64,000 nt of DNA from an uncultured Gammaproteobacteria bacterium (GCA_964424775.1 CAYRJZ010000002.1:73736-137735); one strand, 5' to 3'. Positions 1,686 to 28,521 are shown, counted from the first letter of the stretch. Notes: generated by a model not told the origin, from the letters alone. Made by a program: numbers and translations.

Positions 1686-1687
1686 AT

Positions 1688-3084: not shown

Positions 3085-3166
3085 TTTATAAATTTCCCTT
3101 GTAATGCTCTACTAATTATTATATAGTAAGATAAAATAGAGAACAAACGTTATATTCTCAATCTAA

Positions 3167-8245: not shown

Positions 8246-8246
8246 A

Positions 8247-8966
8247 ATGTTGAATTATACTCCTTATATATTAAAAGAAATTAAAAAAATTAATAAAAAA
8301 GATCAAAGTGTACTAGATGTTGGGTGTGGTATTGGACAGTATTTCCCATACTTAAAAGGGAAAATAACAGGTTTTGATTTTGATAAAAAAAATGTTGAGA
8401 GAGCGAAAAAAAAGTTTCCTGAAGCTAAAGTATTTCATTTTGATTTAACAAAAAGACCACTACCTGGTTTGAAAAAATATGATGTCGTAATTTGTCTTGA
8501 GGTCGTCGAACATATGAAGAAAAGAGATGCTCTCTTATTAATAAAAGAATTAGAGAAAAAGACAAATGGTTACCTTCTTATCTCTACACCCAATATAAAT
8601 AACTTTACATCTCTTCTCCGTTTTCTTATGACGCGAAAGGTGGAAATAGCAGGTGAGGCAAACGTAGTTGAAAAAATTTTATACTTTATTTTAAATAGAA
8701 AATTTCCACCAAAAAATAATAAATATTACGTCATGGAATCTGATAGTCCTGATCTCATCTCCAATAAAAGCCTTCATTATCATGTGTCAAATTTCAGTTC
8801 AGGAGATTTCAAAAAAATGGGTTATAGAGTAGTAGGAGGACTTGGGCAAGTTAACTACGACATTATCGGAAATCAAATGCTAAAAAATTTTATTGAAAAG
8901 ATATTTTATTATTTCCCATATTTGGCTGGTTCATTTTTAGCAATTAAAGAAATTCGCACGAAATAG
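8247..8966 (+). CDS. Class I SAM-dependent methyltransferase
   Basis: VLDVGCGIGQY (motif I), DVVICLEVVEHM (motif II/III region). Confidence 0.6.
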   Translation: MLNYTPYILKEIKKINKKDQSVLDVGCGIGQYFPYLKGKITGFDFDKKNVERAKKKFPEAKVFHFDLTKRPLPGLKKYDVVICLEVVEHMKKRDALLLIKELEKKTNGYLLISTPNINNFTSLLRFLMTRKVEIAGEANVVEKILYFILNRKFPPKNNKYYVMESDSPDLISNKSLHYHVSNFSSGDFKKMGYRVVGGLGQVNYDIIGNQMLKNFIEKIFYYFPYLAGSFLAIKEIRTK

Positions 8967-9010
8967 TTTACTGTTGTGTTTGAAAAAGAAATATATGCTT
9001 AAATTTATAT

Positions 9011-11131
9011 ATGGTAAATAGAAAGAAAAATGAAATTATTTCCTTAGTACTATTGCTCATAGTAGGTATCATTGTTTATCATAGATGGCTGAATATATCT
9101 GCATTTGCTTTTGGAGATTGGGGATTTGGATTTAGAGAAGTTTATTCAGAGATAATATTTCCATATACAGGTGGTGTTTTTGGTCCAAATATTCTTCTTT
9201 GGAAATATCCATTTTTCTTAATAAATGGGTTAGTAAGTCTTTTAGGTTTTAACTCAAATGTTATTGAGAAAGTTATTGTTTTCTGGCCAATTATTCTACT
9301 TACACCAATTAGTGGGTTTCTAATAGTTAAAAAAATTACTCGTTCAAATACAGCTGGGGTAATAGGATCACTTATTTTCTCGTATAACACTTATTTTCTC
9401 TCAATTAGTACTCAAGGCCATCTTCTTTTACCACTTGCATATGCATGGGGTGCATTTGCATGTATAACTTTTATTAATTTGTTAGAAAATAAAAAACTTA
9501 TTTGGCTACCAATAACTGCACTGCTTCTTTTTGTTGTTGGAGCTACAGACTTGAGAAGTCTCTACGTCATTTCAATGATTCTCTGTCTTTATGCACTTTA
9601 CCATCAACTCTTTATTGAAAGAAAAATTAAGGAAAATTTCTTTAAAAATATTTTAAGGTGTTTTTCTGTCTTTTTTATCTTATTTTTGTTAAATATTTTT
9701 TGGATTCTACCTGCAATTACTATTCAAAATTTAACATCTGGTGCTGTTTTTTATAGTGAATTGTTTGGCGGTGAATTTTATAACATTCAAAATGCTATCT
9801 CATTCTTCTATCCTTTTTGGACTGGCAAAGAAACAGCATGGTTGCAGCTCCAAGAAATACCATTGTCATTTTGGTTGTTCCCATTGGTAGCGTTCTCAGG
9901 GCTCTTAGTAGGAAGACGAAATAAAAAAATTGTCTTCTTTGGTCTTATTGCACTTTTTGGCATTTTCTTATCCAAACAAGAATCCCAGCCATTCCCACAG
10001 GTTTATCCATGGCTTTTCCAACATATTCCAGGTTTTGCTGCATTTCGTGAGGCAAGCAAATTTAACTTTTTAATCGTGTTAGGTTATGCAGTTCTTTTTG
10101 CAAGTTTTTCACTCTTTATTAAAAACTATTTTAAGGAGAAAAAATACTTAGCGAGTATAATTATTTTCTTTTTGGCATTGTTGCCTCTTTGGAATACTAT
10201 ACCTTTTATAACAGGAGAAATAAAATCTCTTTATATTCCAAAGACAGTCCCTGAAGATTTTATAAAACTTAGTAATTATTTTAAGAAAGAGAATAACTTT
10301 CAAAGAGTATTTGCCATTAATAATAATATTTACTGGTTATATTCAACTTCAAATCATCCAGTCACCGATGCGGTTGGATCTGTGAGAAATTATTGGGCTG
10401 AAACAAAAATGTATGATGTTGAGTCAGATATGACTGAGGGAAAACGCATTACCCTTTTCCTTACATCAGATTCAGGACGACGATTACTTTCAAATGCGTC
10501 AGTTGGACATCTTGTTGTAAACATAAAAGATGTAGAAACAAACAGTAATGTTAGACGAGATTTTGGAGAAAATAGAGAATTTTTCGAAAAGTCATTTGAT
10601 AAAGTAAATTTTTTGGAAAAGAAAGATATCGGACTTAAAAATACTCTTCTTTATGAAAATAAACAGGTACGACCACTTATCTACTTAACTCAAGAAAAAG
10701 AGAGTTTGAAGAAAGATATTCCATTTGAACGTGTTCAATTTACAACAATTAATCCAACTGAACACCGTATCTCAATTATGAATTTAAGAAACCCTATGTA
10801 TCTCAATTTTGCTGGACTTTATCATCCAGACTGGAAGTTAAGAGTAGGCAGCTTTCATTGGAAAGATGCAGTAGGAAACAAATCATATTTCATTGAGAGT
10901 AAATTTCATCAAAAAAATGAAGTTCTTCAAAATACTTTTTTACTTGACCCAGAGTATTTAAAAAAGAATGATGATGCTGACATAACTGTAAATGAAGACG
11001 GATCAATAAATATGATATTCACGCTCTTTTTTAGACCACAAGCTTATTTATATCTGGGACTCCTTATAAGCACGACTGTATTTGTCTTATCGTTATTCTC
11101 AATCGTTATTCTATTTAAATGGAAAAAATAA
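9011..11131 (+). CDS. Polytopic membrane protein with a large C-terminal extracytoplasmic domain, GT-C-like (YfhO/ArnT/PMT-type)
   Basis: About 12 predicted TM helices over the first roughly 400 aa, a roughly 250 aa soluble domain, then a C-terminal TM. This architecture is typical of GT-C glycosyltransferases that use polyprenyl-phosphate sugars. Confidence 0.4.
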   Translation: MVNRKKNEIISLVLLLIVGIIVYHRWLNISAFAFGDWGFGFREVYSEIIFPYTGGVFGPNILLWKYPFFLINGLVSLLGFNSNVIEKVIVFWPIILLTPISGFLIVKKITRSNTAGVIGSLIFSYNTYFLSISTQGHLLLPLAYAWGAFACITFINLLENKKLIWLPITALLLFVVGATDLRSLYVISMILCLYALYHQLFIERKIKENFFKNILRCFSVFFILFLLNIFWILPAITIQNLTSGAVFYSELFGGEFYNIQNAISFFYPFWTGKETAWLQLQEIPLSFWLFPLVAFSGLLVGRRNKKIVFFGLIALFGIFLSKQESQPFPQVYPWLFQHIPGFAAFREASKFNFLIVLGYAVLFASFSLFIKNYFKEKKYLASIIIFFLALLPLWNTIPFITGEIKSLYIPKTVPEDFIKLSNYFKKENNFQRVFAINNNIYWLYSTSNHPVTDAVGSVRNYWAETKMYDVESDMTEGKRITLFLTSDSGRRLLSNASVGHLVVNIKDVETNSNVRRDFGENREFFEKSFDKVNFLEKKDIGLKNTLLYENKQVRPLIYLTQEKESLKKDIPFERVQFTTINPTEHRISIMNLRNPMYLNFAGLYHPDWKLRVGSFHWKDAVGNKSYFIESKFHQKNEVLQNTFLLDPEYLKKNDDADITVNEDGSINMIFTLFFRPQAYLYLGLLISTTVFVLSLFSIVILFKWKK

Positions 11132-12009
11132 GAAATATTATTTTTATTCTCACAGTGTTGGGTATGATTATCGTACTAACAATTATCACTTTGCTTCAAA
11201 GTGATAATTTGACTGGGTTTTCAATTTTTTATCCAAATGACGTGATAATTACATACCCAAGGGGTGAACTCTATAAGGATCAATCAATAAAACTCGATCT
11301 CAATGTAAATGAGAACTATCTTGGACAGGTAGCAGTACGATTTTATAATTATGATCGAATAAACGAGGACTCCGTACTCTTTAGAATTAGGGAAAAAGGC
11401 TCGAAGTCATGGTATTACGAGCATATCTATAAAACTGACCAGTTCCAGCCACATCACTTATTTCCATTTGGATTTCCGGTCATTCATAATTCAAGGGATA
11501 AGCAGTATCAAATTGAGATAATTTCCCAGAGCGGGAAGCCTGATGATGCAGTTACTTTAAGCTCCCATCAGCCTAAAGTCACAAGTGCACATCAATATCC
11601 CAAACAAGAGCTGTTATCAAATCCATCATTACTGATAGAATTTGTCGTAAATAAGGTAAAGTATAGTCATGTCAGTCTTGATACCTTTATTTCATTTGGG
11701 AAATATGTCCACATAATTACGTTATCTACGGTATTTCTTTATCTTTTCATTAATAGTGTAATAGTCAAGTTTTCTCAATTTCGACAGAATTTAAGTACTG
11801 TGATGCTCATTAGTGGACTTGTGTTGCTGATGAGCGGCGCTCTTCTCCACTATGTCCACCTATTTTCGGTTTCATCGATACTTATTATCACCTCTTATTT
11901 CCTTTTTCTTATGAGTACAGTACTATTTCTTATAGAGAATAAGAAAAATGAAGGCGAGAAGAGGCCATCAATGCGTGAGAAAGTTGTTCGTAAAAGGAAA
12001 AAAGTATGA
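11119..12009 (+). CDS. Hypothetical membrane protein (N-terminal signal anchor, soluble domain, C-terminal TM bundle)
   Basis: Hydrophobicity pattern only. Confidence 0.35.
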   Translation: MEKIRNIIFILTVLGMIIVLTIITLLQSDNLTGFSIFYPNDVIITYPRGELYKDQSIKLDLNVNENYLGQVAVRFYNYDRINEDSVLFRIREKGSKSWYYEHIYKTDQFQPHHLFPFGFPVIHNSRDKQYQIEIISQSGKPDDAVTLSSHQPKVTSAHQYPKQELLSNPSLLIEFVVNKVKYSHVSLDTFISFGKYVHIITLSTVFLYLFINSVIVKFSQFRQNLSTVMLISGLVLLMSGALLHYVHLFSVSSILIITSYFLFLMSTVLFLIENKKNEGEKRPSMREKVVRKRKKV

Positions 12010-13589
12010 GAATTCTTTCAAAAAGACAGAATCTTTTTTTAGTTATAGTTTTACTTCTGATTATTGTAACTCTTTCACTGCTTCTTCGAATTCATTCCTT
12101 TAGTGGTGGTAATTTTTATTTTCTTTTAGACCAGGCAAGAGATATGACTCTTGTTAAAGAGATAGTAGAAAATAGAGATATCACTCTTATTGGTGCCAGG
12201 TCAGGAATAGGGGGAATATTTCATGGCCCACTCTGGCTTTATTTACTTGTTCCAACGTTTGTTTTGAGTGGAGGAAATCCTTATTTTACTCTTGTTCCCA
12301 TTTTTATTCTTTTAACAGTGATTCTAGTTTTGTCCGGATTTTATATTGGATGGAAATTATATGGAGCAAAATATGGACTACTTATAGCTCTTTTCCTTGG
12401 AATTTCCTCTTCTTTTATTGAAAGTATGGCTAATTTTTCTAATGCCCATGTTATGCCACTGATTTTTCTCTTCTTTCTTTACACACTCATACGCTATCTC
12501 AGAGGATATGAAAAAGCTCTCATTGGTAGTGCGTTCTTGATTGGTATTGGTATTCATTTCGAAGCTGCCTTTGCAATTTTTTTAATACCGATTACACTTC
12601 TTACTTTTGTATGGAAGAGAAAATTTCCTCAAATGAAGACCTTATTTAAAAGCACAGTCGTATTTTTCATTACTGTAATAAATTATGTTCTTTTTGAGTT
12701 GAAAAATGGCTTTATTATGACTCGTGCAGCTCTGAATTTAATACTTGGTCATTCAGGTCCAATGGAAGGGTATGAGCAGTATTCAGATGTGTTTTTCAGA
12801 ATAAATGATAGGGTAAGTGTCTTTGTTAATTCTTTTTTTACGCCTTTATTCACACAAACTCAATTAAGTAAAGTGTTGCTGATAATTATTATTATTTCTT
12901 CTTTTGTTTTTACTCTTATACATTTGAAGAAAAAGAAAAGAGAAAAAGATAATTCAGAGTTTTTGTTTCTTCTCCTCATACCTCTAATTATTTCAGCGTT
13001 ATTAGTGATATATCCACATCCTATTTGGCCTCATTATATCCTTCCTTTAGTAATTTCATCAGTGTTTCTATTAGTTTTAGGAATGAAAATCATATCTAAG
13101 CATAAGTTGGGTCATTATTATTCTTGGTTCGCACTTTTAATATTCCTTATCCCAACACTTGGATGGATAGACAATACATATATAAAAGGATACTCTGTGC
13201 CATTATCAAATGGGGCTACATTTCAAAAACAATTAGAAGTTGTAGACTGGGTATTGAATGACGCGGGAAATGAGAAGTTTGGGTATCTTGCTTATACACC
13301 TCAAGTTTTGACATATAACATGGATTATTTAATGTGGTGGAGAAGTAGAGATAAAGGTGTATCACATTATGTCAATAACAAAGAAAGAATTACCTATCTT
13401 CTTCTTCTTCCTCCAAAAGAAGGAGACCTCAAAGCTCATGATTTCTGGAAGAAAAATGTGATACGGACTAATGGGAAAGTGATTGAACGAAAAGTATTTA
13501 GCACAGGTCTTATGGTTGAAAAACTCGAAATTTCCAAGCAAGAACCTCCTGTTGAGTCAACATATTTCCACGGTGCACTCTTCCGATAA
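12006..13589 (+). CDS. GT-C family membrane glycosyltransferase (ArnT/PMT-like)
   Basis: N-terminal TM, then the first-loop acidic motif (LLDQARDM) before a run of about 12 TM helices. The C-terminal soluble domain and layout match the ArnT/PMT_2 family. Confidence 0.45.
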   Translation: MRILSKRQNLFLVIVLLLIIVTLSLLLRIHSFSGGNFYFLLDQARDMTLVKEIVENRDITLIGARSGIGGIFHGPLWLYLLVPTFVLSGGNPYFTLVPIFILLTVILVLSGFYIGWKLYGAKYGLLIALFLGISSSFIESMANFSNAHVMPLIFLFFLYTLIRYLRGYEKALIGSAFLIGIGIHFEAAFAIFLIPITLLTFVWKRKFPQMKTLFKSTVVFFITVINYVLFELKNGFIMTRAALNLILGHSGPMEGYEQYSDVFFRINDRVSVFVNSFFTPLFTQTQLSKVLLIIIIISSFVFTLIHLKKKKREKDNSEFLFLLLIPLIISALLVIYPHPIWPHYILPLVISSVFLLVLGMKIISKHKLGHYYSWFALLIFLIPTLGWIDNTYIKGYSVPLSNGATFQKQLEVVDWVLNDAGNEKFGYLAYTPQVLTYNMDYLMWWRSRDKGVSHYVNNKERITYLLLLPPKEGDLKAHDFWKKNVIRTNGKVIERKVFSTGLMVEKLEISKQEPPVESTYFHGALFR

Positions 13590-13636
13590 GTTTCTTTCTT
13601 TGTATACGCTCAGCTGTTTTTGTTACAATAGATCTT

Positions 13637-14563
13637 ATGATATCAATTGTAGTTCCTGTTTTTAACGAAGAAGACGCATTGAAGCCTTTTTATACTGAAT
13701 TAAAAAGAGTATTAAAAGAGCATAAGTACACATACGAAATTATCTTTATTGAAGATGGTTCAACTGATCTGTCGTTAGATATCCTTAAGTCTTTTGAATC
13801 TGATGATAAATCAGTGAAGGTATTTTCTTTTCGCCGAAATTTGGGGAAAGCTGATGCTTTAACATTAGGATTTCAAAAAGCACAAGGAGATGTTGTTATT
13901 ACAATGGATGCAGATCTTCAAGATCAGCCGAGCGAAATACCACTTTTTCTTACCAAACAAAAAGAAGGCATTGAAGTCGTATGTGGATGGAGAAAGAACA
14001 GAAAAGATAAGTCTCGAATGAAGTTCATCTCAAAATTATTCAATGGTGTCGTTCACAAAGCATTTGATATTCCAGTTCACGATTATAATTGTGGCTTTAA
14101 ACTGTATACACATGAAGCTGCAAAAAGCCTACGCCTCTATGGAGGGCAACATCGTTTTATTCCTGTTCTTGCTGCTGAACAAGGGTTTGTCGTTGATGAA
14201 GTCGAAGTAAAACATGAACCTCGAAAGTTCGGATACTCAAAATATGGGTTCTCAAAAATATTTAAAGATCTTCCTGATATGTTCTCAATACTTTTTCTTG
14301 TAAAGTATCGAAAACGACCACTTCATTTTTTTGGAGCTATGGGGGGTGCGATGACTCTTGTTGGTACATTTCTTTTTATCTATCTGACGATACTTCGACT
14401 GACGGGTGAAAGAATTGGGGATAGGCCTCTGTTGATCTTTTCAGTACTTCTCATACTCGCTGGACTGCAGGTTTTCTTTACAGGATTCTTGGCTGAACTT
14501 TTAACGAACGTCACTCAACGTGACAAGATGAACTTTCCTATCAAATATCAGTCTAAAAATTAA
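13637..14563 (+). CDS. GT2 polyprenyl-phosphate glycosyltransferase (ArnC/GtrB/CsbB/DPM1-like)
   Basis: ISIVVPVFNEE, FIEDGSTD, VITMDADLQDQP (DxD), and a C-terminal two-TM anchor. This is the typical lipid-phosphate sugar synthase that partners GT-C enzymes. Confidence 0.75.
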   Translation: MISIVVPVFNEEDALKPFYTELKRVLKEHKYTYEIIFIEDGSTDLSLDILKSFESDDKSVKVFSFRRNLGKADALTLGFQKAQGDVVITMDADLQDQPSEIPLFLTKQKEGIEVVCGWRKNRKDKSRMKFISKLFNGVVHKAFDIPVHDYNCGFKLYTHEAAKSLRLYGGQHRFIPVLAAEQGFVVDEVEVKHEPRKFGYSKYGFSKIFKDLPDMFSILFLVKYRKRPLHFFGAMGGAMTLVGTFLFIYLTILRLTGERIGDRPLLIFSVLLILAGLQVFFTGFLAELLTNVTQRDKMNFPIKYQSKN

Positions 14564-14565
14564 AC

Positions 14566-15099
14566 ATGAGAATTGGTATTGATATTTCCCAACTTGCATA
14601 TAGTAATACTGGTGTTGCTAATCTTCTTAAAAATCTCGTGAACACACTTACAGAAGAAGGGAAAAACCATGAGTTTATACTGTTCTATTCTTCTCTTAGA
14701 AGACCTTTTAATAATGAGTGGATAATAAGCCGTCCTAATGTTTCCATAAAGCAATTCAAACTTCCTCCTTCTCTTTTAGATCTATTATGGAATAGGCTTC
14801 ATATTCTTCCAGTTGAGTATTTTATTGGAGAAGTTGATTTGTTTATATCATCGGATTGGACTGAGCCACCAACTAAAAATGCTCAAAAAGTTACTATTCT
14901 TTACGACCTTGTTGTACTGAAGTACCCTCAGGAAAGTACAGAAAAAATTGTGGATACTCAAAAGAGAAAATTGCACTGGGTGCAAAAAGAGACAGAGAAG
15001 ATACTCTGCATTTCTGAATCTACCCTACATGATGCAAGAGAACTCCTCCATATCCAACCCGATAAATTATCTGTTGTTTACCCCGGATTAACTGCTTAG
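14566..15099 (+). pseudogene. Truncated GT4 glycosyltransferase, N-terminal domain only (177 aa); likely remnant of a paralog
   Basis: MRIGIDISQLAYSNTGVANLL aligns with the N-termini of the full-length GT4s at 15139 and 22577 (M.FGIDA...GV, MKVGIDARFWNETGVGRY). It ends before any GT-B C-domain. Confidence 0.4.
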
Positions 15100-15138
15100 T
15101 TTATTTCTTGAGCGGGATAAATAGACTATACTAAAAAT

Positions 15139-16269
15139 ATGATATTTGGAATTGATGCAAATGAAGCAAATGTTGAGAGAAAAGTCGGTGTGAGTGAGTA
15201 TTCTTTTGAATTACTTCGTCAGTTCAATGAGTTATCTCCTGAAGAATCTGAGTGGCAGATATATCTAAAAAATTCACCAAGAGATGAATTCCCAAAAGAA
15301 AGAAGAAATTGGAAATATAACGTCTTTGGTCCAACAAAGTTGTGGACACAAATTGCTCTCCCCTTGATGCTATATAGACAAAAGAACAAACCAGATGTCT
15401 TTTTCTCTCCAGGTCATTATGCTCCTCGATTTAGTCCAGTTCCACGGGTAATCTCGATTATGGACTTAGCTTTTTTTCATTTTCCTGAATACTTTACCAA
15501 AAAAGACTTAATACAACTTCATAATTGGACGAAGTATTCTGTCAAGGCTGCAAAGAAAATTATCACCATAAGTGAGGCAACGAAGAATGATATAATCAAA
15601 TTGTACAGTGTTCCCGAGGAGAAAATAGAGGTCATTTATCCTGGAATAAAACACACTTTTTTAACATTAAAGAGTATGAGTAAAGCTGACATTCAAGAAA
15701 AATATGACATTTCCGACCACTATGTGCTTTTCGTTGGGACACTTCAGCCACGTAAAAATATTGAAAAGCTTATTGAAGCATTTGCTCTCGCAAAAAAATC
15801 TTTAGTGGATACCTGTCAAGGTCTCCAACTTGTCATTGTAGGGAAAAAAGGGTGGCAATTTGAATCTATTTTATCTGCACCACAGCGTTTTAATGTTGAG
15901 GAGAGCGTTAAATTTCTTGATTTTGTTCCTGATGATGATCTTGCAGCTCTCTATAAAAATGCCCAACTTTTTGCATTTCCGAGTCTTTATGAAGGGTTTG
16001 GATTGCCAGTGCTTGAAGCTATGAGGTATGGTTGTCCAGTTCTGACAAGTAATATTAGTTCATTGCCTGAAGCTGGCGGAGACGCTGCATATTACATCAA
16101 TCCAAATGACGCAAAAGATATTGCACAAGGAATAGAGAAAATTATTTCTAACTCTAGGCTTCGTTCAGAGATGATAGAAAAGGGAAAAAAACAAATAGCT
16201 AAGTTCAGCTGGGAAAAAGCGGCAAAAGAAACACTTGCAGTCCTTGAAGAAGTAGGAAACAATAAGTAA
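15139..16269 (+). CDS. GT4 glycosyltransferase
   Basis: Complete GT-B: N-domain MIFGIDANE..., C-domain YVLFVGTLQPRKN...FAFPSLYEGFGLPVLEAMRYGCPVLTS (EX7E). Confidence 0.8.
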   Translation: MIFGIDANEANVERKVGVSEYSFELLRQFNELSPEESEWQIYLKNSPRDEFPKERRNWKYNVFGPTKLWTQIALPLMLYRQKNKPDVFFSPGHYAPRFSPVPRVISIMDLAFFHFPEYFTKKDLIQLHNWTKYSVKAAKKIITISEATKNDIIKLYSVPEEKIEVIYPGIKHTFLTLKSMSKADIQEKYDISDHYVLFVGTLQPRKNIEKLIEAFALAKKSLVDTCQGLQLVIVGKKGWQFESILSAPQRFNVEESVKFLDFVPDDDLAALYKNAQLFAFPSLYEGFGLPVLEAMRYGCPVLTSNISSLPEAGGDAAYYINPNDAKDIAQGIEKIISNSRLRSEMIEKGKKQIAKFSWEKAAKETLAVLEEVGNNK

Positions 16270-16274
16270 TACAT

Positions 16275-16829
16275 ATGATTCCGAGAGTAAAAAGAAGAAT
16301 TACAACCGTTGTGTCTGAATATATTGTTTTTTGGCTTCATATTATTGGAACTGTTCCTTCACATACAATAAGGCGTTTTTTCTATCGTCTATCCGGAATT
16401 GAGATTGGAAGAGGATCTACTATTCATATGGGAGCTCGTTTCTATCAACCGGCAAATATCTCAATTGGTAAAGATACCATTGTCGGAGAAGGAGTTGTCT
16501 TAGATGGGAGAGCCAAACTTATTATTGGTAATCATGTAGCAGTAGCATCTGACGTTATGATCTATAACGCTGAACATGATATCCACAGCACAACATTTCA
16601 TGCGATCACGGGAGATGTCTTTATACATGACTATGTCTTTATTGGCCCTCGGGCAATAATTTTACCAGGTGTAACGATTGGAAAAGGCGCTGTCGTTGCC
16701 GCAGGAGCTGTTGTGACGAAAGATGTTAAGCAATACTCAATAGTTGGTGGTGTGCCAGCAAAAGAAATTGGAGAACGAAAAGAAAGAGATCTCACTTATA
16801 GATTGGGGAGATCTGCCTGGTTCAGATAA
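16275..16829 (+). CDS. Hexapeptide-repeat (LbH) acetyltransferase
   Basis: ISIGKDTIVGEGVVLDG...IGNHVAVASDVMIYN...FIGPRAIILPGVTIGKGAVVAAGAVV. Confidence 0.65.
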   Translation: MIPRVKRRITTVVSEYIVFWLHIIGTVPSHTIRRFFYRLSGIEIGRGSTIHMGARFYQPANISIGKDTIVGEGVVLDGRAKLIIGNHVAVASDVMIYNAEHDIHSTTFHAITGDVFIHDYVFIGPRAIILPGVTIGKGAVVAAGAVVTKDVKQYSIVGGVPAKEIGERKERDLTYRLGRSAWFR

Positions 16830-16830
16830 T

Positions 16831-19800
16831 ATGAAGAAATTTTTAAATTTTATAAGTAATAACTCGCTTCTTATCCTTACTTTATTTTTTATTGCATTTA
16901 TTCCTCTTTATCCCAAGCTCCCATTATTTGATATCAAGCATACATGGGTGTATATCCGACTTGAAGATTTATTAGTAGCACTCACATGGGGGGTATTTCT
17001 AATACACCTTATATTGCGTAAAGCAACTCTTAAAACTCCACTTACAGTACCTATATTTACCTTCTGGATTATAGGCGCCTTAGCTACCTTCAATGGTGTA
17101 CTTTTTATTTTTCCAGAGTTACGTGATGTTTTCCCGCAAATAGCTTTTCTACATTATTTGAGAAGGCTTGAATATCTTTCTTTCTTTTTCCTTGCATTTT
17201 CTGCAATCAAGAAAAAATCCTCACTTACACCTGTAATTGTTACTCTCACTGTAACACTTATTGCAATTGTCATATATGGAATCGGGCAGAGAGTATATGG
17301 ATTCCCCGCATTTCTTACGATGAACGAAGAGTTTGCTAAAGGTGTTCCACTTCGCTTATCACCACTCTCACGCGTGGCATCAACTTTTGCAGGTCATTAT
17401 GATTTAGCAGCATACCTTATCCTCCTTATTCCGATAATGGGAGGACTCGTTTTTGGATTTAAGAAGATTTGGCAGAAAGCAATTTTCTTATTTGCTGGAA
17501 CTGGGGCACTTATTCTTCTTTTGATGACTAATTCTCGGGTCTCATTTAGTGTCTATATGGTCTCTATAGTTGTTCTTCTGGTTCTTCTTAAGAAAAAGTT
17601 ATTTATTATTCCTGTTCTAGCACTCAGTATTCTGTTACTCCAATCGTTCCCGGGAATTTCTCAACGATTTGCAAGTACATTTACCCAGGTCGATTTAGCT
17701 GTTGATTCACGAACAGGCAAGCCAATTGGTATCGTTTCAGAAGGAGGAGAGAATGACGGAAAAATTGTTATTGAGGACAAACAATCAACAGGGGAAAATC
17801 TCCCTCAGGGTTCAAAGTATATAAATATTCCATCTACGTCAGGAAGTGAGTTTACATCTGAGATAGTCTATAAAAAACTCCGTCCGGGATCAGGTCAGGA
17901 AAAAATTATCAGTAGGACAGGAGAAGTAATTGTTAAAAAAGCCTTTGCCTATGATGTTTCTTTTACAACACGCCTCCAAGGTGAATGGCCTCGTGCGACA
18001 GAAGCATTTCTGAGAAATATTCTTCTTGGAAGTGGATATTCTTCAATTAATTTAGCAACTGACAACAACTATCTTCGAATATTAGGTGAGACTGGATCAC
18101 TCGGCTTCCTCTCTTTCTTCTTTATTTTTCTGACAATCGGAATATATGCATTTAAAATCCTTCCTGATATTACTGATGCAAGAGCTCGGGCATTTGTCAT
18201 TGGTACAATGAGTGGAATTTTCGGATTATCTTTAAATGCAGTCCTCATTGATGTTTTCGAAGCATCGAAAGTCGCGTTCAGTCTTTGGCTCCTGGTGGGT
18301 GTCCTTATGGGAGTACTCGTTCAATATCAGAAAAAGCCCATACATCTATTTAAAGAAATTAAAGACATTCTATTATCAGTCCCTGCACTGCTCTTGTATC
18401 TTGGAGGGATTGGATTTTTAGTATTTTTATCTGGACTGTCAAATTATTTTGTAGGTGATGATTTTACCTGGTTGAGATGGGCTGCTGATTGTCAGGCAGC
18501 TTTATCACAAAATACAAATGCATGTGGATCTTTCGTCCAGACGATAATTGGCTACTTTACAGATTCACAAAATTTCTTTTATCGACCTGGAACCAAAACA
18601 TACTTTTTCTTGATGTATCCGATATTTGAGCTCTTTCCACTTCCATTTCATGTTGTTTCAGTATTACTTCATGTCGCAGCGGCTTCTTTAATATTTTTTA
18701 TTTTAAATAAATTGTTCGGAAGTAGATTGTGGTCTTTTGTAGGTGCTGTGTTATTTTCAGTATTAAGTACTCACGCCGAGTCTGTGTACTGGATTTCAGT
18801 GACGGGTACCCTCATTACAGCAAATCTTATTCTTTTCAGTCTGCTTATTTTTCTTTACTGGCGAGAAAATAAAAATATTTTTCTATTCCTTCTTATGCTT
18901 CCATCATTACTTGTTGCAACATTCTTTCAGGAATTTGGAGTCATTGGTCCTGTCATGCTTATAGCCTTGGATAGTGTCCTTTCACGAGAAAATGGAGGAG
19001 TTAAAACATTGAGAAAAAATCTACTTTGGTATCTACTTTTATTTGTTCCGGTCATTCTCTATTATATCCTTCGACAAAATGCACAAAGTATTTGGTTTAG
19101 TGGTGATTATAGTTACAATTTGATGAAACTTCCGTTCAATTTTCTAGGCAATGCTGTCGGATATATTTTACTCGCTCTATTTGGTCCCTCATCACTCTCC
19201 TTTTATTCTTTCTTTAGAAATTTGAGCTCTGATAATGTCATAGTTGTTACTCTTTTTGGATTTGTACTGCTAGGAATTGGGTTTTATATTGTTCGAAAAT
19301 ATTACAGTACTATTTCAAAGAAGACATCGTTATACATTATTTTTGGTTTAACTCTCTTTGTTACTTCTCTCCTTCCTTTTTTGGGACTGGGAAATATAGC
19401 ACCACGTTATAATTACCTCGCTTCTTTTGGAATAATAATTATTGTAGTCGTCCTTCTGAGATCAGCTTACACACGGCTCAGTAAGAGATCAAAAGAGACA
19501 GCTATTGCAGTCATTTTTATAACAATTGCACTCTTTGCTTTTTATCATGTCCGGGAACTTCAAAGAATTCAACAAGACTGGAAGAAAGCAGGGGAGATTA
19601 CCAATAATACTTTAGTCAGCTTAAGCTATGCGTATCGAAATACCGATGAAGCCACACCATCTGCTAAAACTTTCTTTTTTGTAAACAAACCTATCAGATA
19701 TGGCGAAGCATGGGTGTTTCCGGTTGGCTTAAATGATGCACTTTGGTTTAGTTTTCAGAGTAAGGATATCAGAATTATCGAATCAAGTGCTGAAGATGAA

Positions 19801-19914
19801 GCATTTAAGAGTGCTCAGAAATTATTGAATGCGCATGTATTTAAATATTTAGACAATGGAGATCTTGTTGAGGTCAGAACAGCTACATCTCCCGCTGAAT
19901 TGAATGAAGAATAA
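16831..19914 (+). CDS. Large (1,027 aa) O-antigen-ligase (Wzy_C) domain fusion membrane protein with a second polytopic domain and a C-terminal soluble domain
   Basis: The start was moved to the in-frame ATG at 16831 (MKKFLNF...); the ORF-track start at 16744 overlaps the upstream gene. Wzy_C signatures are present: MTNSRVSF (T-x-SR) and the periplasmic-loop motif ATDNNYLRILGETGSLGF (H/N-N-Y-L-x-x-L-x-E-x-G). After a soluble linker, a second block of about 10 TM helices follows, then a C-terminal soluble domain. Confidence 0.55.
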   Translation: MKKFLNFISNNSLLILTLFFIAFIPLYPKLPLFDIKHTWVYIRLEDLLVALTWGVFLIHLILRKATLKTPLTVPIFTFWIIGALATFNGVLFIFPELRDVFPQIAFLHYLRRLEYLSFFFLAFSAIKKKSSLTPVIVTLTVTLIAIVIYGIGQRVYGFPAFLTMNEEFAKGVPLRLSPLSRVASTFAGHYDLAAYLILLIPIMGGLVFGFKKIWQKAIFLFAGTGALILLLMTNSRVSFSVYMVSIVVLLVLLKKKLFIIPVLALSILLLQSFPGISQRFASTFTQVDLAVDSRTGKPIGIVSEGGENDGKIVIEDKQSTGENLPQGSKYINIPSTSGSEFTSEIVYKKLRPGSGQEKIISRTGEVIVKKAFAYDVSFTTRLQGEWPRATEAFLRNILLGSGYSSINLATDNNYLRILGETGSLGFLSFFFIFLTIGIYAFKILPDITDARARAFVIGTMSGIFGLSLNAVLIDVFEASKVAFSLWLLVGVLMGVLVQYQKKPIHLFKEIKDILLSVPALLLYLGGIGFLVFLSGLSNYFVGDDFTWLRWAADCQAALSQNTNACGSFVQTIIGYFTDSQNFFYRPGTKTYFFLMYPIFELFPLPFHVVSVLLHVAAASLIFFILNKLFGSRLWSFVGAVLFSVLSTHAESVYWISVTGTLITANLILFSLLIFLYWRENKNIFLFLLMLPSLLVATFFQEFGVIGPVMLIALDSVLSRENGGVKTLRKNLLWYLLLFVPVILYYILRQNAQSIWFSGDYSYNLMKLPFNFLGNAVGYILLALFGPSSLSFYSFFRNLSSDNVIVVTLFGFVLLGIGFYIVRKYYSTISKKTSLYIIFGLTLFVTSLLPFLGLGNIAPRYNYLASFGIIIIVVVLLRSAYTRLSKRSKETAIAVIFITIALFAFYHVRELQRIQQDWKKAGEITNNTLVSLSYAYRNTDEATPSAKTFFFVNKPIRYGEAWVFPVGLNDALWFSFQSKDIRIIESSAEDEAFKSAQKLLNAHVFKYLDNGDLVEVRTATSPAELNEE

Positions 19915-21352
19915 AGCTTTATTGTTACTCTTACTTATATTTTTAGGCTCAATTTTTGTTCGATTATATCGTTTTGATAATCCTGTTGCTGATTGGCATT
20001 CATGGAGACAGGCAGATACAGCATCTGTAACACGAAATTTTGTACAAGAAGGGTATACTCCTTTCTTTCCAAAATTTGACGTATTAAATTCCCTCAACGA
20101 GACATTTACTCCTAATCCAAATAGATATTTTTTTGCAGAGTTTCCACTTTATAACTCATTGACGTATTTTGGATTTATCCTTTTTGATTTTTTCACCCTT
20201 GAACAGTGGGGAAGGGTAATTAGTATAGGAGCATCGTCATTAACTGTCATAGTTCTTTACTTTTTAGTAAAGCATTATTCGAATTCAAGAATTGCGATGT
20301 TTGCTTCTTTCCTCTTTGCATTTCTTCCTTTTAATATTTATTGGGGAAGAGTAATTATGCCTGATGCATTGCATATTTTTTTAAGTGTTTTTACATTTTT
20401 TCTTGTTACACGGTGGCTCGATTCCAAAAAAATACTTTATGCACTCCTTGCCAGCATTATCTATGCAGGAGCGTTACTCACCAAACCATATGCACTCGTT
20501 CTCCTATTACCACTTGTATATTTAATACTTCGAACATATAAATTTTCTGTCTGGAAACAGTATGCTGTTTATTTGTTTTTTATCCTTTCACTGGCTCCTT
20601 TATTTCTTTGGAGATGGCATATAAGTCAGTATCCAGAGGGAATGTTTGGGACGACATGGCTTTATAATCAAGGTGGAATAAGATTTACAGGTGCTTTTTT
20701 CCGATGGATTATTTATGATCGGATGAATAGATTGATCTTTGCAACTGGAGGTTTTGTATTATTTTGGCTTGGGGTTATAAGTGGATATAACAAAAAAGAA
20801 GGATGGTTTTATTTGTTATGGCTGGTAAGTATTTTTGTCTTCATTACTGTTATTGCTAGAGGAAATGTAACTCATGATTATTATCAACTTCCACTCGTTC
20901 CAATAGGCTGTATTTTTATGGCAAAAGGAATTGATTTTCTTATTACCTATAAGAATACTTTGTTTCAAAGGGCAATTAATATAGGAATTATTGGAGTATT
21001 ATTAGCACTTCTTTTTGCCTTCGGATGGTATGAAATAAGAGGATACTATTATGTAAATAATCCATCGATAATTAAAGCAGGACAATATGTTGATAAAAAT
21101 CTTCCTCAAGATGCTATTGTCATTGCTCCATACCAGAACGACACAGCTTTTCTCTATCAAACGAATAGACATGGGTATACAGTAGGAGAAGGAAAAATTG
21201 AAGAATACAGAGAAGAAGGCGCAACACATTTGGTTTCCGTCAATTTTGATGATGCAACAAATGAATGGGCTAAAAGATGCACCGTAATTGAAAAAAATAA
21301 GGATTTTATTGTCGTTGACCTCACTGAGTGTGCTGCAGGGGAAGAAAAATGA
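19904..21352 (+). CDS. GT-C glycosyltransferase, ArnT/PMT (GT83/GT39-like) family
   Basis: VRLYRFDNPVADWHSWRQADTASVTRNF is the hallmark first-loop region of ArnT/PMT-type GT-C enzymes. Many TM helices follow, then a C-terminal soluble domain. Confidence 0.65.
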   Translation: MKNKALLLLLLIFLGSIFVRLYRFDNPVADWHSWRQADTASVTRNFVQEGYTPFFPKFDVLNSLNETFTPNPNRYFFAEFPLYNSLTYFGFILFDFFTLEQWGRVISIGASSLTVIVLYFLVKHYSNSRIAMFASFLFAFLPFNIYWGRVIMPDALHIFLSVFTFFLVTRWLDSKKILYALLASIIYAGALLTKPYALVLLLPLVYLILRTYKFSVWKQYAVYLFFILSLAPLFLWRWHISQYPEGMFGTTWLYNQGGIRFTGAFFRWIIYDRMNRLIFATGGFVLFWLGVISGYNKKEGWFYLLWLVSIFVFITVIARGNVTHDYYQLPLVPIGCIFMAKGIDFLITYKNTLFQRAINIGIIGVLLALLFAFGWYEIRGYYYVNNPSIIKAGQYVDKNLPQDAIVIAPYQNDTAFLYQTNRHGYTVGEGKIEEYREEGATHLVSVNFDDATNEWAKRCTVIEKNKDFIVVDLTECAAGEEK

Positions 21353-24764: not shown

Positions 24765-25847
24765 ATGAAAATTATTGTTTTTGCAGGAGGTGTTGGTTCT
24801 CGACTTTGGCCACTCTCACGAAAGAATACTCCAAAACAATTCGGGCAGATTATTGGTGAAGAATCAACGCTGCAATCAACAATAAATCGTCTCCTTCCTG
24901 AATTTAAAGCTGAAGATATCTATATTGCTACCGGAAAACAATACGCAAATGTTGTTCGTGAACAACTCCCGATGATTCCAGCAGAAAATTTTATACTTGA
25001 ACCAGCAACACGAGATGTAGGACCAGCAATTGGACTTAACGCTTTTTTGCTTGATAAAAAATTTAGTGATGAACCTATTGCGATATTGTGGAGCGATCAT
25101 ATGGTCAAAAATGAAGTTATGTTTCGTCATGTTTTACGACTTGCTGAGTCAAGTGTCCTCAACCACAATGGGAAATTTGTATTTATTGCACAAAAACCAC
25201 GTTTTGCAAATCAGAATTTAGGTTGGATTGAGCTTGGAGATAAGTTAAAAGAGGAAGAGGGAGCGGAAATCTATAGATTCCAAAGGCTTCGGTATAGACC
25301 AAAGCTTGAAGATGCACAGCTTTTCTTTAAAAATGCCTCCTTTGTCTGGAATTTGGGATATTTTGTAACTACTCCTCGAACTTTGGTAAATCTTTTTCAG
25401 GAGTATGCTCCAGACATGCATAACCAACTTATGGAAATTAGGGATGCGTGGGGAACTGATGCATATGAACAGAAGTTAGAAGAAATCTATCCTACACTTG
25501 AGAAAATCAGTTTTGACGATGCAATATTAGTAAAGATGACACCTGATGATGTCTATGTGATCGCAACTGATCTTGGGTGGAGTGATATTGGAGCGTGGGA
25601 TGCCCTCAAAGAAGCACTATCAGAAGAGAGTTCACAGAATATTACCAAAGGTAATGTTCTCCTTGAAGATACACAAGACACTCTTGCATTCAACTACACG
25701 AATCAATTAGCTGTTGGAATAGATTTAAGCGAGCTTCTCATAATTAACACTGAAGATGTTCTTCTTATTTGTCCAAAGCAGTCGGTACCTAAGATTAAGA
25801 AACTGGTCGAAAGTCTCTCTGGGACACCACTTGAGCATCTTGCTTAA
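24765..25847 (+). CDS. manC: Mannose-1-phosphate guanylyltransferase (GDP-mannose pyrophosphorylase); no PMI domain
   Basis: MKIIVFAGGVGSRLWPLSR.NTPKQF (the GG-x-G-x-RLWPLS signature of ManC/CpsB); 360 aa. Confidence 0.75.
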   Translation: MKIIVFAGGVGSRLWPLSRKNTPKQFGQIIGEESTLQSTINRLLPEFKAEDIYIATGKQYANVVREQLPMIPAENFILEPATRDVGPAIGLNAFLLDKKFSDEPIAILWSDHMVKNEVMFRHVLRLAESSVLNHNGKFVFIAQKPRFANQNLGWIELGDKLKEEEGAEIYRFQRLRYRPKLEDAQLFFKNASFVWNLGYFVTTPRTLVNLFQEYAPDMHNQLMEIRDAWGTDAYEQKLEEIYPTLEKISFDDAILVKMTPDDVYVIATDLGWSDIGAWDALKEALSEESSQNITKGNVLLEDTQDTLAFNYTNQLAVGIDLSELLIINTEDVLLICPKQSVPKIKKLVESLSGTPLEHLA

Positions 25848-25852
25848 CACCC

Positions 25853-26518
25853 ATGCCCTACAAAGAAATTAAAAAAAGTGAATACTACGAGATTGTAAAA
25901 CGCCTTCTGGATATTTTATTTGCATCAATACTTTTAATCATTTTTTCTCCAGTTATTTTGTTGGTAACTCTAGCAATCAAACTTAATTCACCAGGTCCAG
26001 TCCTCGCTGATACCCCTGAGCGGGTAGGGAAAAACGGCAAACCATTTAAAATGTTCAAATTTCGATCTATGATCCAAAATGCGCACACAATCCTTCGGGA
26101 AGATCCTGAATTTGCAAAGTTATATGAAATGTACAAACAAGGTAGTTATAAATTAAAAAATGATCCTCGTATAACAAGTGTTGGGAAAATTATTCGCAAA
26201 TTTTCTTTGGATGAAGTTCCACAATTATTCAATATATTGATAGGAGATATGAGTCTTGTTGGCCCACGTGCATATTATCCTGATGAACTTCGGGAGCAGC
26301 AAAAAAAATATCCTGAGACACAGGAGTCGGTAAAAATAGTACTTTCTGTCAAACCAGGTCTCACTGGCTTTTGGCAAGTTTCAGGAAGAAGTGAGATCAA
26401 CTTTGATAAGAGGATCGAGATGGATGCTGAGTACGTGAGAAAGCGTTCAATTGTGTATGATTTTTATATTATCGCACGTACACCATGGGCTATGATTTCA
26501 GGAAAAGGTGCACTCTAG
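25853..26518 (+). CDS. Small initiating phosphoglycosyltransferase (bacterial sugar transferase, PglC/WbaP C-domain type)
   Basis: One N-terminal re-entrant helix, [25 protein letters not shown] and [11 protein letters not shown], which are the PF02397 signatures. Confidence 0.8.
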
Positions 26519-26559: not shown

Positions 26560-28521
26560 ATGGCTGGTTTTGAAAAAATTGATCTGGTTTCACGGACGAG
26601 AAGTAGACTTCAGCCTAAAGAAGAGGACAATACTATGGGAAGACAAAGAAATAGAAAGAAATTATTTAGAATTACTCGAAAAAATGTCGGGAAAGTTGTT
26701 GGAATTGCACTAGTAATAATTCTTTTGTTAACTTTTGGATTGATCCTTCCGGGAGTGAGACTTGCTAAATCCGCACAAGCGACCTATACCCAGGCAAGAG
26801 TTTTATCTAGTGCACTAAAGCAACAAAATATTGAGCTTGCGTCAGTTGAACTTGAAAAAACAAAAGCAGCACTTTCAGATACACAGAACAAGATGAAACC
26901 TCTTATCTATCTGAAGTTTATTCCAATTGTTAATTTTTATTACAATGATGCAGAACATGGATTAAAAGCAGGTGAAGAGGGAATGAAAGCTGCAACAATA
27001 GTTGTTGACTCACTCAAACCTTACGCTGACGTTTTAGGACTCAAAGGTCAGGGATCTTTTGCTGGTGGTTCTGCAGAAGACCGAATTAAAACAGCAGTAC
27101 TTTCCATGGGAAAGATTACACCTCGTATTGATGAAATTTCAGACAGTCTTGTTAAAGTAAGGGCAGAAGTTGATCAGATAAATCCTGATCACTATCCCGA
27201 ATTTTTGTTCGGAAAGAAAATAAAATCTCAACTCACTCAGGCAAAGCTTCTCACAGATCAGGGTGTAGAATTCGTTGATGAGGCACGTCCACTTATTAAA
27301 GTTTTACCTTCGCTTCTTGGTGAGAAAGAAGAGAAAAAGTACTTAGTTCTTTTCCAGAATGACAAAGAACTTCGCCCAACTGGAGGATTTATTACTGCGT
27401 ATGCAATTTTTAGACTTGATAAGGGTGTTATTAAGCTTGATCGTTCAGATGATATTTATGTTCTTGATGACTCAATTCCCAACAAACCAAAAGCACCTGC
27501 GCCTATTTTAAAATATCTTCCAAAGGTTCCAACTCTTAACCTTCGTGATTCAAATCTTTCTCCAGATTTTATTGAGTCAATGAAGGAGTTCAATAAACTC
27601 TACGATCGGGCAGGTCAGAAAGTAGAGGTAGATGGTATTATCGCTATTGATACAAATGTTCTTGTTGAAACTATCCGTGTACTTGATGATCAAATTACCG
27701 TCAACGGTACAACATATAATACAAAAGAAGATTCACGATGCGATTGTCCTCAAGTTATTTATGAGCTAGAGAATAACATCTCCCGCCCTGTGAATTATGT
27801 TAGAACAGATAGAAAAGCACTTCTGGGGGACATGTTAACTGCTCTTATGAGTAAAGCGCTTTCATCTTCTCCCAAACAGTACTGGGGACCTCTTTTCCAG
27901 ACAATGTTAAATCAAACATATCAAAAACACGTGATGTTCTACTTATATGATGAAAATGCTCAGTCTGGTATTGAGGCACTCAATGCAGCAGGGCGCATAC
28001 TGCCATTTGAAGGAGACTATCTCCATATCAATGACACTAACTTTGGAGGGGCAAAGTCCAATCTCTTTGTAGAGCAGGAAATTGAGGTAAATTATGAAGT
28101 AAGTGGAGATGGAAGAGTAGTAAAAACTGTTACGGCTGATTATAAAAATACCTATCCACCATCAGATTGTAATTTAGAACGTGGAGGACTGTGTCTGAAC
28201 GCAGAGTTAAGAGATTGGGTCAGGCTATATGTTCCCAAAGGAAGTAAATACATAAAAAATACAGGATCTGAAGTGAAAATGACGACAAGTGAGGATTTGG
28301 GAAAGACTGTTATCGAAGGATTTATTACAGTTCGTCCGCTTGGAAAAACAAAGCTAACAGTTACCTATGAACTTCCATTCAAAGTAGAAAATGGCACATT
28401 ACCTGTACTTATTCAAAAACAGCCTGGCACATATGGACCTTCGTACACGATTAAAGTTAACGGAAAAACAGTTGAAAAGTTTGATCTCCTTACCGATAAA
28501 GAATTAAAACTTCGAGTATAA
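26560..28521 (+). CDS. Membrane-anchored large extracytoplasmic protein (DUF4012-like; function unknown)
   Basis: Basic N-terminus, single TM (VVGIALVIILLLTFGLIL) and a roughly 580 aa exodomain. The motif QNDKELRPTGGFI recalls the DUF4012 family, but that family call is uncertain. Confidence 0.35.
   Translation: MAGFEKIDLVSRTRSRLQPKEEDNTMGRQRNRKKLFRITRKNVGKVVGIALVIILLLTFGLILPGVRLAKSAQATYTQARVLSSALKQQNIELASVELEKTKAALSDTQNKMKPLIYLKFIPIVNFYYNDAEHGLKAGEEGMKAATIVVDSLKPYADVLGLKGQGSFAGGSAEDRIKTAVLSMGKITPRIDEISDSLVKVRAEVDQINPDHYPEFLFGKKIKSQLTQAKLLTDQGVEFVDEARPLIKVLPSLLGEKEEKKYLVLFQNDKELRPTGGFITAYAIFRLDKGVIKLDRSDDIYVLDDSIPNKPKAPAPILKYLPKVPTLNLRDSNLSPDFIESMKEFNKLYDRAGQKVEVDGIIAIDTNVLVETIRVLDDQITVNGTTYNTKEDSRCDCPQVIYELENNISRPVNYVRTDRKALLGDMLTALMSKALSSSPKQYWGPLFQTMLNQTYQKHVMFYLYDENAQSGIEALNAAGRILPFEGDYLHINDTNFGGAKSNLFVEQEIEVNYEVSGDGRVVKTVTADYKNTYPPSDCNLERGGLCLNAELRDWVRLYVPKGSKYIKNTGSEVKMTTSEDLGKTVIEGFITVRPLGKTKLTVTYELPFKVENGTLPVLIQKQPGTYGPSYTIKVNGKTVEKFDLLTDKELKLRV

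Follow-up and report, generated by a model that had tools for sequence, protein, structure and literature searches.

Why would a genome surround a single polyprenyl-phosphate sugar synthase with several glycosyltransferases of the GT-C kind? This question is raised by positions 9011-21352 (+ strand) of a 64,000-nucleotide stretch of DNA (CAYRJZ010000002.1:73736-137735, from GCA_964424775.1). We will refer to the whole stretch as the window, and all coordinates are counted from its first letter. The window has a GC content of about 30-40%. Its deposited label is uncultured Gammaproteobacteria bacterium; the host is a member of the Patescibacteria, or candidate phyla radiation (CPR), with a Levybacteria-like genome of ~35% GC. 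The region encodes the synthase, three membrane proteins of 706, 527, and 482 amino acids (aa), and a fusion protein of 1,027 aa. We conclude that this region is probably the core of a conserved assembly line for envelope glycoconjugates in the CPR, which uses two kinds of lipid-linked donors.

The proposed synthase (308 aa; 13637..14563, + strand) belongs to glycosyltransferase family 2 (GT2), and it scores 109 bits against Glycos_transf_2 from Pfam. Using phmmer, we found that it is similar to the solved ArnC (E = 1.5e-39, residues 2-292) and to the solved GtrB of Synechocystis (E = 2.9e-34, residues 2-296). Both matches are full-length and include the transmembrane (TM) region. Its hydropathy suggests about two C-terminal TM helices (three overlapping segments were returned, between aa 232 and 283). 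These results agree with the initial annotation of this gene as a polyprenyl-phosphate sugar synthase. More precisely, the sequence predicts an enzyme of the ArnC/GtrB type (PgfS is also similar) that is a paralog of ArnC. The initial annotation also stated that such a synthase usually pairs with a single GT-C, which is too strong. Mycobacterial Ppm1 feeds many GT-Cs, and one synthase for several GT-Cs thus has a precedent in the Actinobacteria.

The fusion protein (16831-19914, + strand) starts with an ATG that lies 2 nt past the upstream stop codon. It was initially described as a fusion that includes an O-antigen-ligase domain, and its N-terminal half (aa 1 to ~505; 16831..18345) does match Wzy_C (PF04932) at 31.7 bits, which is exactly the gathering score. 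This half has a WaaL-like fold with 12 TM helices. In the AlphaFold2 model of the full-length protein (predicted local distance difference test, or pLDDT, of 79.5), the 12 helices and their large outer loop are followed by a second helical bundle from aa ~517. A beta-rich insertion of ~90 residues in the large outer loop (aa ~284-375) has a pLDDT below 60. A Foldseek search with this model found PglB (6e-4), Pmt4, and WaaL (3e-3). As the 706-aa protein, whose model has only the GT-C_A fold, gave no matches to WaaL or SEDS proteins, the two classes of hits for the fusion imply that it has two domains.

WaaL proteins share the signature H[NSQ]X9GXX[GTY], whose first residue is the essential H338 in Escherichia coli WaaL (bioRxiv 10.1101/2022.10.31.514599). 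The signature is present in the fusion in exact register (D411-N-X9-G422-XX-G425; window 18061-18105), with Asp instead of His. Asp was found at this position in 108 of 120 homologs, while no His was observed, and it was invariant in a 40-sequence alignment of the fusion (A2). Two arginines are invariant as well: R236, which has an "SR" context, and R279. From spacing alone, they plausibly correspond to R215 and R288 of WaaL. Overall, the fusion shares its Wzy_C score, the spacing of the motif, and the upstream SR arginine with WaaL/Wzy_C proteins (GT121 in CAZy, fold GT-C_B; PDB 7tpg and 7tpj) and with the O-oligosaccharyltransferases PglL and WsaB. It differs from WaaL in its Asp for the catalytic His, in the outer-loop insertion, and in having a GT-C_A domain of ~520 residues attached.

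That C-terminal half (aa ~506-1027; 18346..19914) had been suspected of being a further GT-C domain, and profile-profile comparisons with hhalign support this. Columns 545-983 of the fusion aligned with columns 31-449 of a PMT_2-like family (~390 columns, Prob 77%, E = 2e-5), and columns 598-739 aligned with the family of the 706-aa protein (Prob 94%, E = 1.6e-7). The half opens with a TM helix, and then comes an invariant G-D543-D544-F-T-W (in A2). A strict regular expression found the GDD in at least 78 of the 120 homologs. The C-terminal half thus has both homology to GT-C_A proteins and an acidic first loop. By helix count, the large WaaL loop (after helix 9) and the GDD loop (after helix 13) are both predicted to face outward. 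Other searches found little: Pfam has no match to this half in any of the 40 members of A2 (with no YfhO at E ≤ 1), hmmsearch with the A2 profile found no match among PDB sequences, and single-sequence phmmer searches of the PDB with all four membrane proteins gave only noise.

There are over 1,500 homologs of the fusion. The best 120 are all ~1,010-1,130 aa long and are 44-94% identical. Those with a named organism are from Levybacteria, Microgenomates, or other Patescibacteria, and they are annotated as Wzy_C at most. In six other contigs, fusion homologs (45-65% identical) lie in the same block of genes. These contigs are from a Levybacteria metagenome-assembled genome (MAG), an unclassified Patescibacteria MAG, Microgenomates, and assemblies in NCBI, ENA, and Logan. 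The common order is the ArnC-like GT2, a GT4 N-terminal domain of ~180 aa, a GT4, a hexapeptide acetyltransferase, sometimes another GT2, the fusion, a PMT_2 protein of 481-506 aa, several GT4s, ManC, Bac_transf, and DUF4012. This order recurs in L005, L006, L085, L086, and L087 (we use such numbers for related loci), and several CPR genomes show synteny for the block as a whole, starting with the gene for the 706-aa protein and ending with PGT-DUF4012-RecO. For example, L087 is colinear with the window from a methyltransferase and a 714-aa relative of the 706-aa protein through RecO and GlyRS. In the window, RecO and GlyRS and then the dcw cluster (PBP2, Mur ligases, MurA, GlmS, MraY, FtsW, MurG, FtsA, and FtsZ) are directly downstream of the locus. 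Vertical conservation and the adjacent dcw cluster mark the block as core envelope machinery, not as a variable capsule island.

The WaaL-like half might instead be a Wzy-type polymerase, as Wzy_C takes in both polymerases and ligases. The block would then make a Wzy-dependent capsule or exopolysaccharide, with side chains of the repeat unit glycosylated by the GT-Cs. An initiating phosphoglycosyltransferase (PGT) with several GT4s is a typical repeat-unit cluster, and the DUF4012 protein, whose gene consistently follows the PGT, might act as a partner similar to a co-polymerase. However, among the window ORFs (open reading frames) that we scanned, there was no Wzx flippase and no tyrosine kinase or polysaccharide co-polymerase. 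We consider a polymerase to be rather unlikely, but it is the explanation to take most seriously after the assembly line with two kinds of donors.

The three other membrane proteins supply the remaining GT-C domains of the proposed assembly line. One of them is of the PMT_2 (GT39/GT83-like) kind, and another probably is. The 482-aa protein (19904..21352, + strand) exceeds the Pfam cutoffs for both PMT_2 (PF13231, 42.6 bits vs. 26.1) and PMT (PF02366, 27.8 bits vs. 22.7). The Asp-rich signature RFDNPVADWHSWRQADTA that was initially reported for its first loop is present in the sequence, and it is conserved in the ortholog from L006, which is 39% identical and follows the fusion gene there. The gene downstream of the fusion gene is consistently a PMT_2 gene of this type (also in L005, L085, L086, and L087). 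The 527-aa protein (12006..13589, + strand) has no significant match of its own in Pfam, including PMT_2. Among its full-length homologs at 38-46% identity, about half do contain PF13231, including homologs at 40-45% identity, and some are named as GT39 or ArnT-like at the source. D42 and D46 in its first loop are invariant in a 33-sequence alignment (A3); the A3 profile found nothing among PDB sequences. Compared to the PMT_2 family, then, both the 527-aa protein and the fusion's C-terminal half fall below significance in Pfam and have no match in the PDB by profile. Unlike protein O-mannosyltransferases, the PMT_2 proteins in the window lack a MIR domain. The third slot, which the 527-aa protein fills in the window, is variable, and other membrane proteins occupy it in other genomes. 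We rejected the third-slot membrane proteins of L001 (654 aa) and L003 (553 aa) as orthologs, as they have no BLAST similarity to the 527-aa protein.

The 706-aa protein (9011..11131, + strand) is not in any Pfam family. A word-indexed search found 74 homologs from Levybacteria, Moranbacteria, and Pacearchaeota, which are hypothetical proteins without Pfam domains, apart from a few that carry an extra CBM_4_9 or LysM. From this family, we aligned 41 sequences that are 26-79% identical (A1). Neither phmmer with the single sequence nor hmmsearch with the A1 profile gave any match to PDB sequences, including AftD, STT3, and PglB. A Pfam scan of the 41 members at E ≤ 1 found no convincing family. 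YfhO (PF09586) had no matches, and GT-C_AftD (PF11847) matched just one member, below the gathering threshold (E = 0.099).

The AlphaFold2 model of the 706-aa protein, built with the alignment, has a pLDDT of 91.4 and a predicted template modeling score of 0.91. By structure, AftD is its best match over the full length (553 aligned residues), and its polytopic TM core matches that of solved GT-C_A enzymes. No transporter, SEDS, or WaaL structure was among the matches. The N-terminal TM domain is followed by an extracytoplasmic C-terminal domain that is rich in beta structure, and the protein ends with a TM anchor. As in AftD and other GT-C enzymes, there are two short helices (H42-49 and H63-76) between TM1 (H2-22) and TM2, and D36 lies in this first outer loop, just ahead of the short helices. 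D36 is invariant in A1, as are Y128, R182, Y185, W270, F309, K322, P327, F345, R346, K350, and Q677. In AftD, the essential residues are K39, D41, E251, K361, and D474 (bioRxiv 10.1101/2019.12.22.885152). The invariant residues of the 706-aa family seem to resemble the K39/D41/K361 set, if residues are matched without superposition.

By sequence, the closest named relative is MmpA (NF053599 in NCBIfam). We found sub-threshold matches to MmpA in 39 of the 41 members of A1, with a best E of 4.7e-11; these align residues ~292-392 with model positions ~260-362. The window's protein scores 31.7 bits against a cutoff of 210, which indicates remote homology and not membership. MmpA itself is reported to be partly homologous to AftD in its N-terminal part (PMC8698533). 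We therefore place the 706-aa family as a distant branch within the AftD/MmpA lineage of GT-C_A. It shares with mycobacterial AftD (a GT-C arabinofuranosyltransferase; PDB 6wbx) and the paralog-like MmpA (Rv0226c/NCgl2761) the sub-threshold matches to MmpA, the first-loop Asp, and, in its long members, CBM_4_9. On the other hand, the 706-aa protein is half the size of AftD and lacks the acyl carrier protein (ACP)-binding module, and its family is found in Patescibacteria and DPANN archaea instead of Actinobacteria.

The initial annotation of three separate GT-C proteins thus holds, although on different grounds for each: the 482-aa protein matches PMT_2 directly, the 527-aa protein has homologs that do so, and the 706-aa protein, which like the 527-aa protein has no Pfam match of its own, is recognizable from its fold and conserved residues. 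Rather than leading to unrelated transporter families, profile searches led to PMT_2 for the 482-aa protein and, in the case of the 527-aa protein, for its homologs. The first loop of every GT-C domain has conserved acidic residues (706-aa protein, D36; 527-aa protein, D42 and D46; fusion, D543 and D544; 482-aa protein, the Asp-rich motif).

How widespread is the 706-aa family? A profile search of 1.84 billion representatives at 50% identity found 10,962 proteins with E ≤ 1e-3, 6,330 with E ≤ 1e-10, and 2,187 with E ≤ 1e-30. Many members of the family are 1,000-1,290 aa long and contain CBM_4_9. AftD also has carbohydrate-binding modules, so these long relatives argue for a glycan acceptor. 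Among species representatives from GTDB, we identified 78 loci with a gene from this family. Loci labeled as CPR come from Levyi-, Moranii-, Pacei-, Doudna-, Ames-, Falkow-, Wirth-, and Peri-bacteria, WWE3, and Saccharimonadales. Two Pacearchaeota and the cultured Minisyncoccus archaeiphilus are in the set as well. Other labels are attached to about twenty of the 78 records, mostly "uncultured Gammaproteobacteria" or unclassified bacterium, and we suspect that these are mislabeled MAGs. The family member from M. archaeiphilus PMX.108 (L040, NZ_AP038758.1:968749-986419) is 36% identical to the window's protein over residues 12-557.

Genes of the 706-aa family are linked to genes for a synthase. 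A full-length ArnC-like GT2 is encoded no more than 8 kb away in 28 of the 78 loci, and it is on the same strand in 27 cases. If we consider only loci with at least 5 kb on both flanks, the proportion is 20 of 45. By chance, we would expect a few percent, if we assume that a genome of ~1 Mb contains one to three such genes. In L003 (from Moranbacteria, GCA_013334765.1), a 917-aa protein (6616-9369) with a weak match to YfhO is encoded just 5' of a 746-aa member of the family and an ArnC-like GT2. Stacks of several GT-C-type proteins around a single synthase are therefore found in other CPR lineages, too.

The 706-aa protein, and possibly the fusion's C-terminal half, might not be enzymes at all. 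Like MmpA, which is described as lacking recognizable catalytic motifs and has been suggested as a membrane anchor for a complex (PMC8698533), they could be scaffolds or lipid-delivery proteins that have the GT-C fold and organize the other enzymes. MmpA is the sole link at the sequence level between the 706-aa family and any named family. However, the invariant D36, R182, K322, R346, and K350 are like K39, D41, and K361 of AftD, the best full-length structural match is to AftD, which is an enzyme, and members of the family are fused to CBM_4_9 and linked to a gene for a polyprenyl-phosphate sugar synthase. A non-catalytic role is unlikely in our view. Another idea is that the 706-aa protein is an oligosaccharyltransferase like PglB or AglB that transfers PP-linked (pyrophosphate-linked) glycans en bloc onto S-layer or pilin proteins, and although a PGT/GT4 route to such glycans is encoded alongside, this is quite improbable: profiles found no similarity to STT3 or PglB, structural coverage is better for AftD, which uses lipid-P-monosaccharides, PP-linked glycans already have a WaaL-like transferase in this locus, and we rejected membership in GT66 because a motif similar to WWDYG (W[WYF]D[YWF][GA]) is absent from all 41 members of A1.

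How might these proteins work together in the proposed assembly line? The analysis establishes folds, family relations, conserved residues, and synteny; we infer the donors, the order of the steps, the acceptor (a protein, a lipid, or a wall glycan), and the coupling. Judging from its family, the PGT would prime polyprenyl phosphate at the cytoplasmic face of the membrane. The GT4 enzymes would lengthen the oligosaccharide, with GDP-mannose from ManC among the donors, and the hexapeptide acetyltransferase would modify it, also at the cytoplasmic face. Separately, the GT2 would load single sugars onto polyprenyl phosphate. Both products would have to be flipped to the outer face before the WaaL and GT-C steps. 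There, the WaaL-like half of the fusion, with Asp411 in place of the catalytic His, would transfer or polymerize the PP-linked glycan. Up to four GT-C_A domains (the 706-, 527-, and 482-aa proteins and the fusion's C-terminal half) would add single sugars from polyprenyl-P-sugars to the glycan, to envelope proteins, or to both. The organism is a CPR bacterium of the monoderm type and does not have lipopolysaccharide, so the acceptor of the fusion cannot be lipid A-core. Proteins, lipoteichoic-like polymers, and the surface layer, as initially suggested, are candidate acceptors.

With a PP-glycan transferase joined to a P-sugar transferase in a single polypeptide, and with both predicted active sites facing outward, the fusion suggests that en bloc transfer is coupled with decoration or priming of the same acceptor. 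We also have a more specific proposal, which is tentative and may well be wrong. The fusion would be a bifunctional envelope enzyme that is specific to the CPR, with an Asp-for-His WaaL-type domain and a GT-C_A transferase that is invisible to Pfam, and it would use two lipid-linked donors to modify the same acceptor. Together with the large and still unannotated AftD/MmpA-like family (~11,000 clusters), which is confined to ultra-small Patescibacteria and DPANN archaea, it would build a surface glycoconjugate that defines these lineages, possibly the layer with which episymbionts contact their hosts.

Several observations weigh against an assembly line of this kind. First, we found no flippase: among the ORFs between positions 314 and 30602, no Pfam family of the Wzx, GtrA, ArnE/F, or ABC type was present, which leaves both lipid-carrier branches without a demonstrated translocation step here. 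(Related loci have candidate genes, with EamA in L005 and Polysacc_synt in L001.) Second, the fusion lacks the catalytic His of WaaL, so it is not certain to act as a ligase. Third, the AlphaFold2 model of the fusion is of moderate quality only, above all in the outer-loop insertion. Fourth, MmpA, to which the 706-aa family is closest in sequence, is not a known glycosyltransferase (PMC8698533). Finally, the GT2 does not belong to either of the equivalog families that it resembles, as it scores 164 bits for ArnC (NF007986; the cutoff is 529) and 150 bits for PgfS (the cutoff is 500). Because these scores are so far below the cutoffs, no sugar specificity can be assigned from the equivalogs.

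As a system, the locus is a familiar kind of cluster for lipid-carrier-dependent surface glycosylation. It resembles three-component systems, which comprise a GT2 (GtrB, ArnC, CsbB, or PgfS), a small flippase, and a GT-C (GtrC, ArnT, YfhO, or PgfM1), in that a membrane-anchored GT2 is encoded beside GT-C-fold proteins with an Asp in the first loop. It differs from them in having one synthase among four GT-C domains and no gene for a flippase of the GtrA or ArnE/F type in the ORFs that we scanned. Also, two of the window's GT-C domains do not match any Pfam family, and none of them matches YfhO or the ArnT equivalog.

Our literature searches for O-antigen ligases of Patescibacteria, GT-Cs of the CPR, and fusions of Wzy_C with GT-C found nothing relevant. 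Three features appear not to be described in the literature that we found: an AftD/MmpA-like GT-C family, limited mainly to Patescibacteria and DPANN archaea, for which Pfam has no model; a conserved fusion that joins a WaaL-like domain with a His-to-Asp change to a GT-C_A domain; and a conserved stand-alone gene for the N-terminal domain of a GT4 (see below). Patescibacteria are a large share of bacterial diversity and live attached to hosts, and their surface chemistry is almost uncharted. Naming the 706-aa family and the GT-C half of the fusion would improve the annotation of thousands of CPR and DPANN genomes. If a single chain does combine a PP-glycan transferase with a P-sugar transferase, this would be new to glycoengineering. 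Since the 706-aa family is present in the genomes of the cultured M. archaeiphilus and of Saccharimonadales, these predictions are accessible to experiments.

We now turn to the other genes. The ORFs that were initially annotated are all present and co-directional on the + strand, with overlaps or abutments between stops and starts that are typical of operons (11119/11131, 12006/12009, 14563/14566, 16829/16831, 19904/19914, and 21352/21354). They are part of a nearly continuous array of sugar-metabolism genes on the + strand that runs from 314 to ~28.5 kb. The gene content that had been listed for 9011-21352 stands, except that two genes were left out, for a 296-aa membrane protein and for the acetyltransferase.

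The 296-aa protein (11119..12009, + strand) has no match in Pfam or NCBIfam. Its hydropathy indicates one N-terminal TM helix, an outer domain of ~170 aa, and 3-4 C-terminal TM helices. Its gene overlaps the genes for GT-Cs on both sides, and the gene in the same position in L001, from Levybacteria, is 37% identical. Using tblastn, we found matches beside a gene of the 706-aa family in 19 loci. The unannotated proteins of ~300 aa in L005 and L006 gave no match, and we rejected them as counterparts. The acetyltransferase (184 aa; 16275..16829, + strand) contains hexapeptide repeats (Hexapep, 61.5 bits) and is similar to WcaF (NF007797, 103.9 bits).

Between the synthase and the acetyltransferase lie a 177-aa protein with just the N-terminal domain of a GT4 (14566..15099, + strand; Glyco_transf_4, 31.8 bits) and a full-length GT4 of the GT-B fold (376 aa; 15139..16269, + strand; Glycos_transf_1, 134 bits). 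The 177-aa protein was initially taken for a truncated fragment, but its gene is conserved and stands alone. The 187-aa product of a gene in L001 is 52% identical to it, and equivalents of ~180 aa are present in five more loci (L005, L006, L085, L086, and L087). At least six CPR loci have a separate gene for this acceptor-side domain (46-61% identical) immediately 5' of the gene for a full-length GT4. The product may be a non-catalytic partner or regulatory subunit, and its gene not a pseudogene. We rejected a pairing of the 177-aa protein with a GT4 at 314-1057 that seemed to have only the C-terminal domain; that ORF simply runs off the left end of the window.

Downstream of the 482-aa protein, and all on the + strand, are three more GT4s (21354-22553, 22577-23674, and 23610-24740), a ManC-like sugar-1-phosphate nucleotidyltransferase (24765..25847; NTP_transferase, 82 bits), and the initiating PGT (221 aa; 25853..26518; Bac_transf, 207.5 bits). 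Pfam confirmed the initial annotation of these genes and of the GT4 at 15139; the third downstream GT4 starts at 23610 instead of 23649. The ORF of the first one may open at 21288. The match of the ManC-like protein to the ManC beta-helix has 24.8 bits, which is under the cutoff of 27. The conserved final gene of the block encodes the 653-aa DUF4012 protein (26560..28521, + strand; 79.5 bits). It directly follows the gene for the PGT in L006 and L087 as well, and it may encode an uncharacterized component of the pathway.

Upstream, at 1104-8966, the genes appear to specify a pathway to a modified nucleotide sugar. They encode a SIS isomerase, a ribulose-phosphate 3-epimerase, an NTP transferase (on the minus strand), an APH-like kinase of 529 aa, a HAD phosphatase, a protein similar to C-methyltransferases, a GT90-like protein, a hexapeptide acyltransferase, and a SAM (S-adenosylmethionine) methyltransferase. 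Finally, in the dcw cluster, between GlmS and MraY, there is an ORF of 527 aa (44226-45809) that has no Pfam family and shows a faint trace of Mur_ligase_C.

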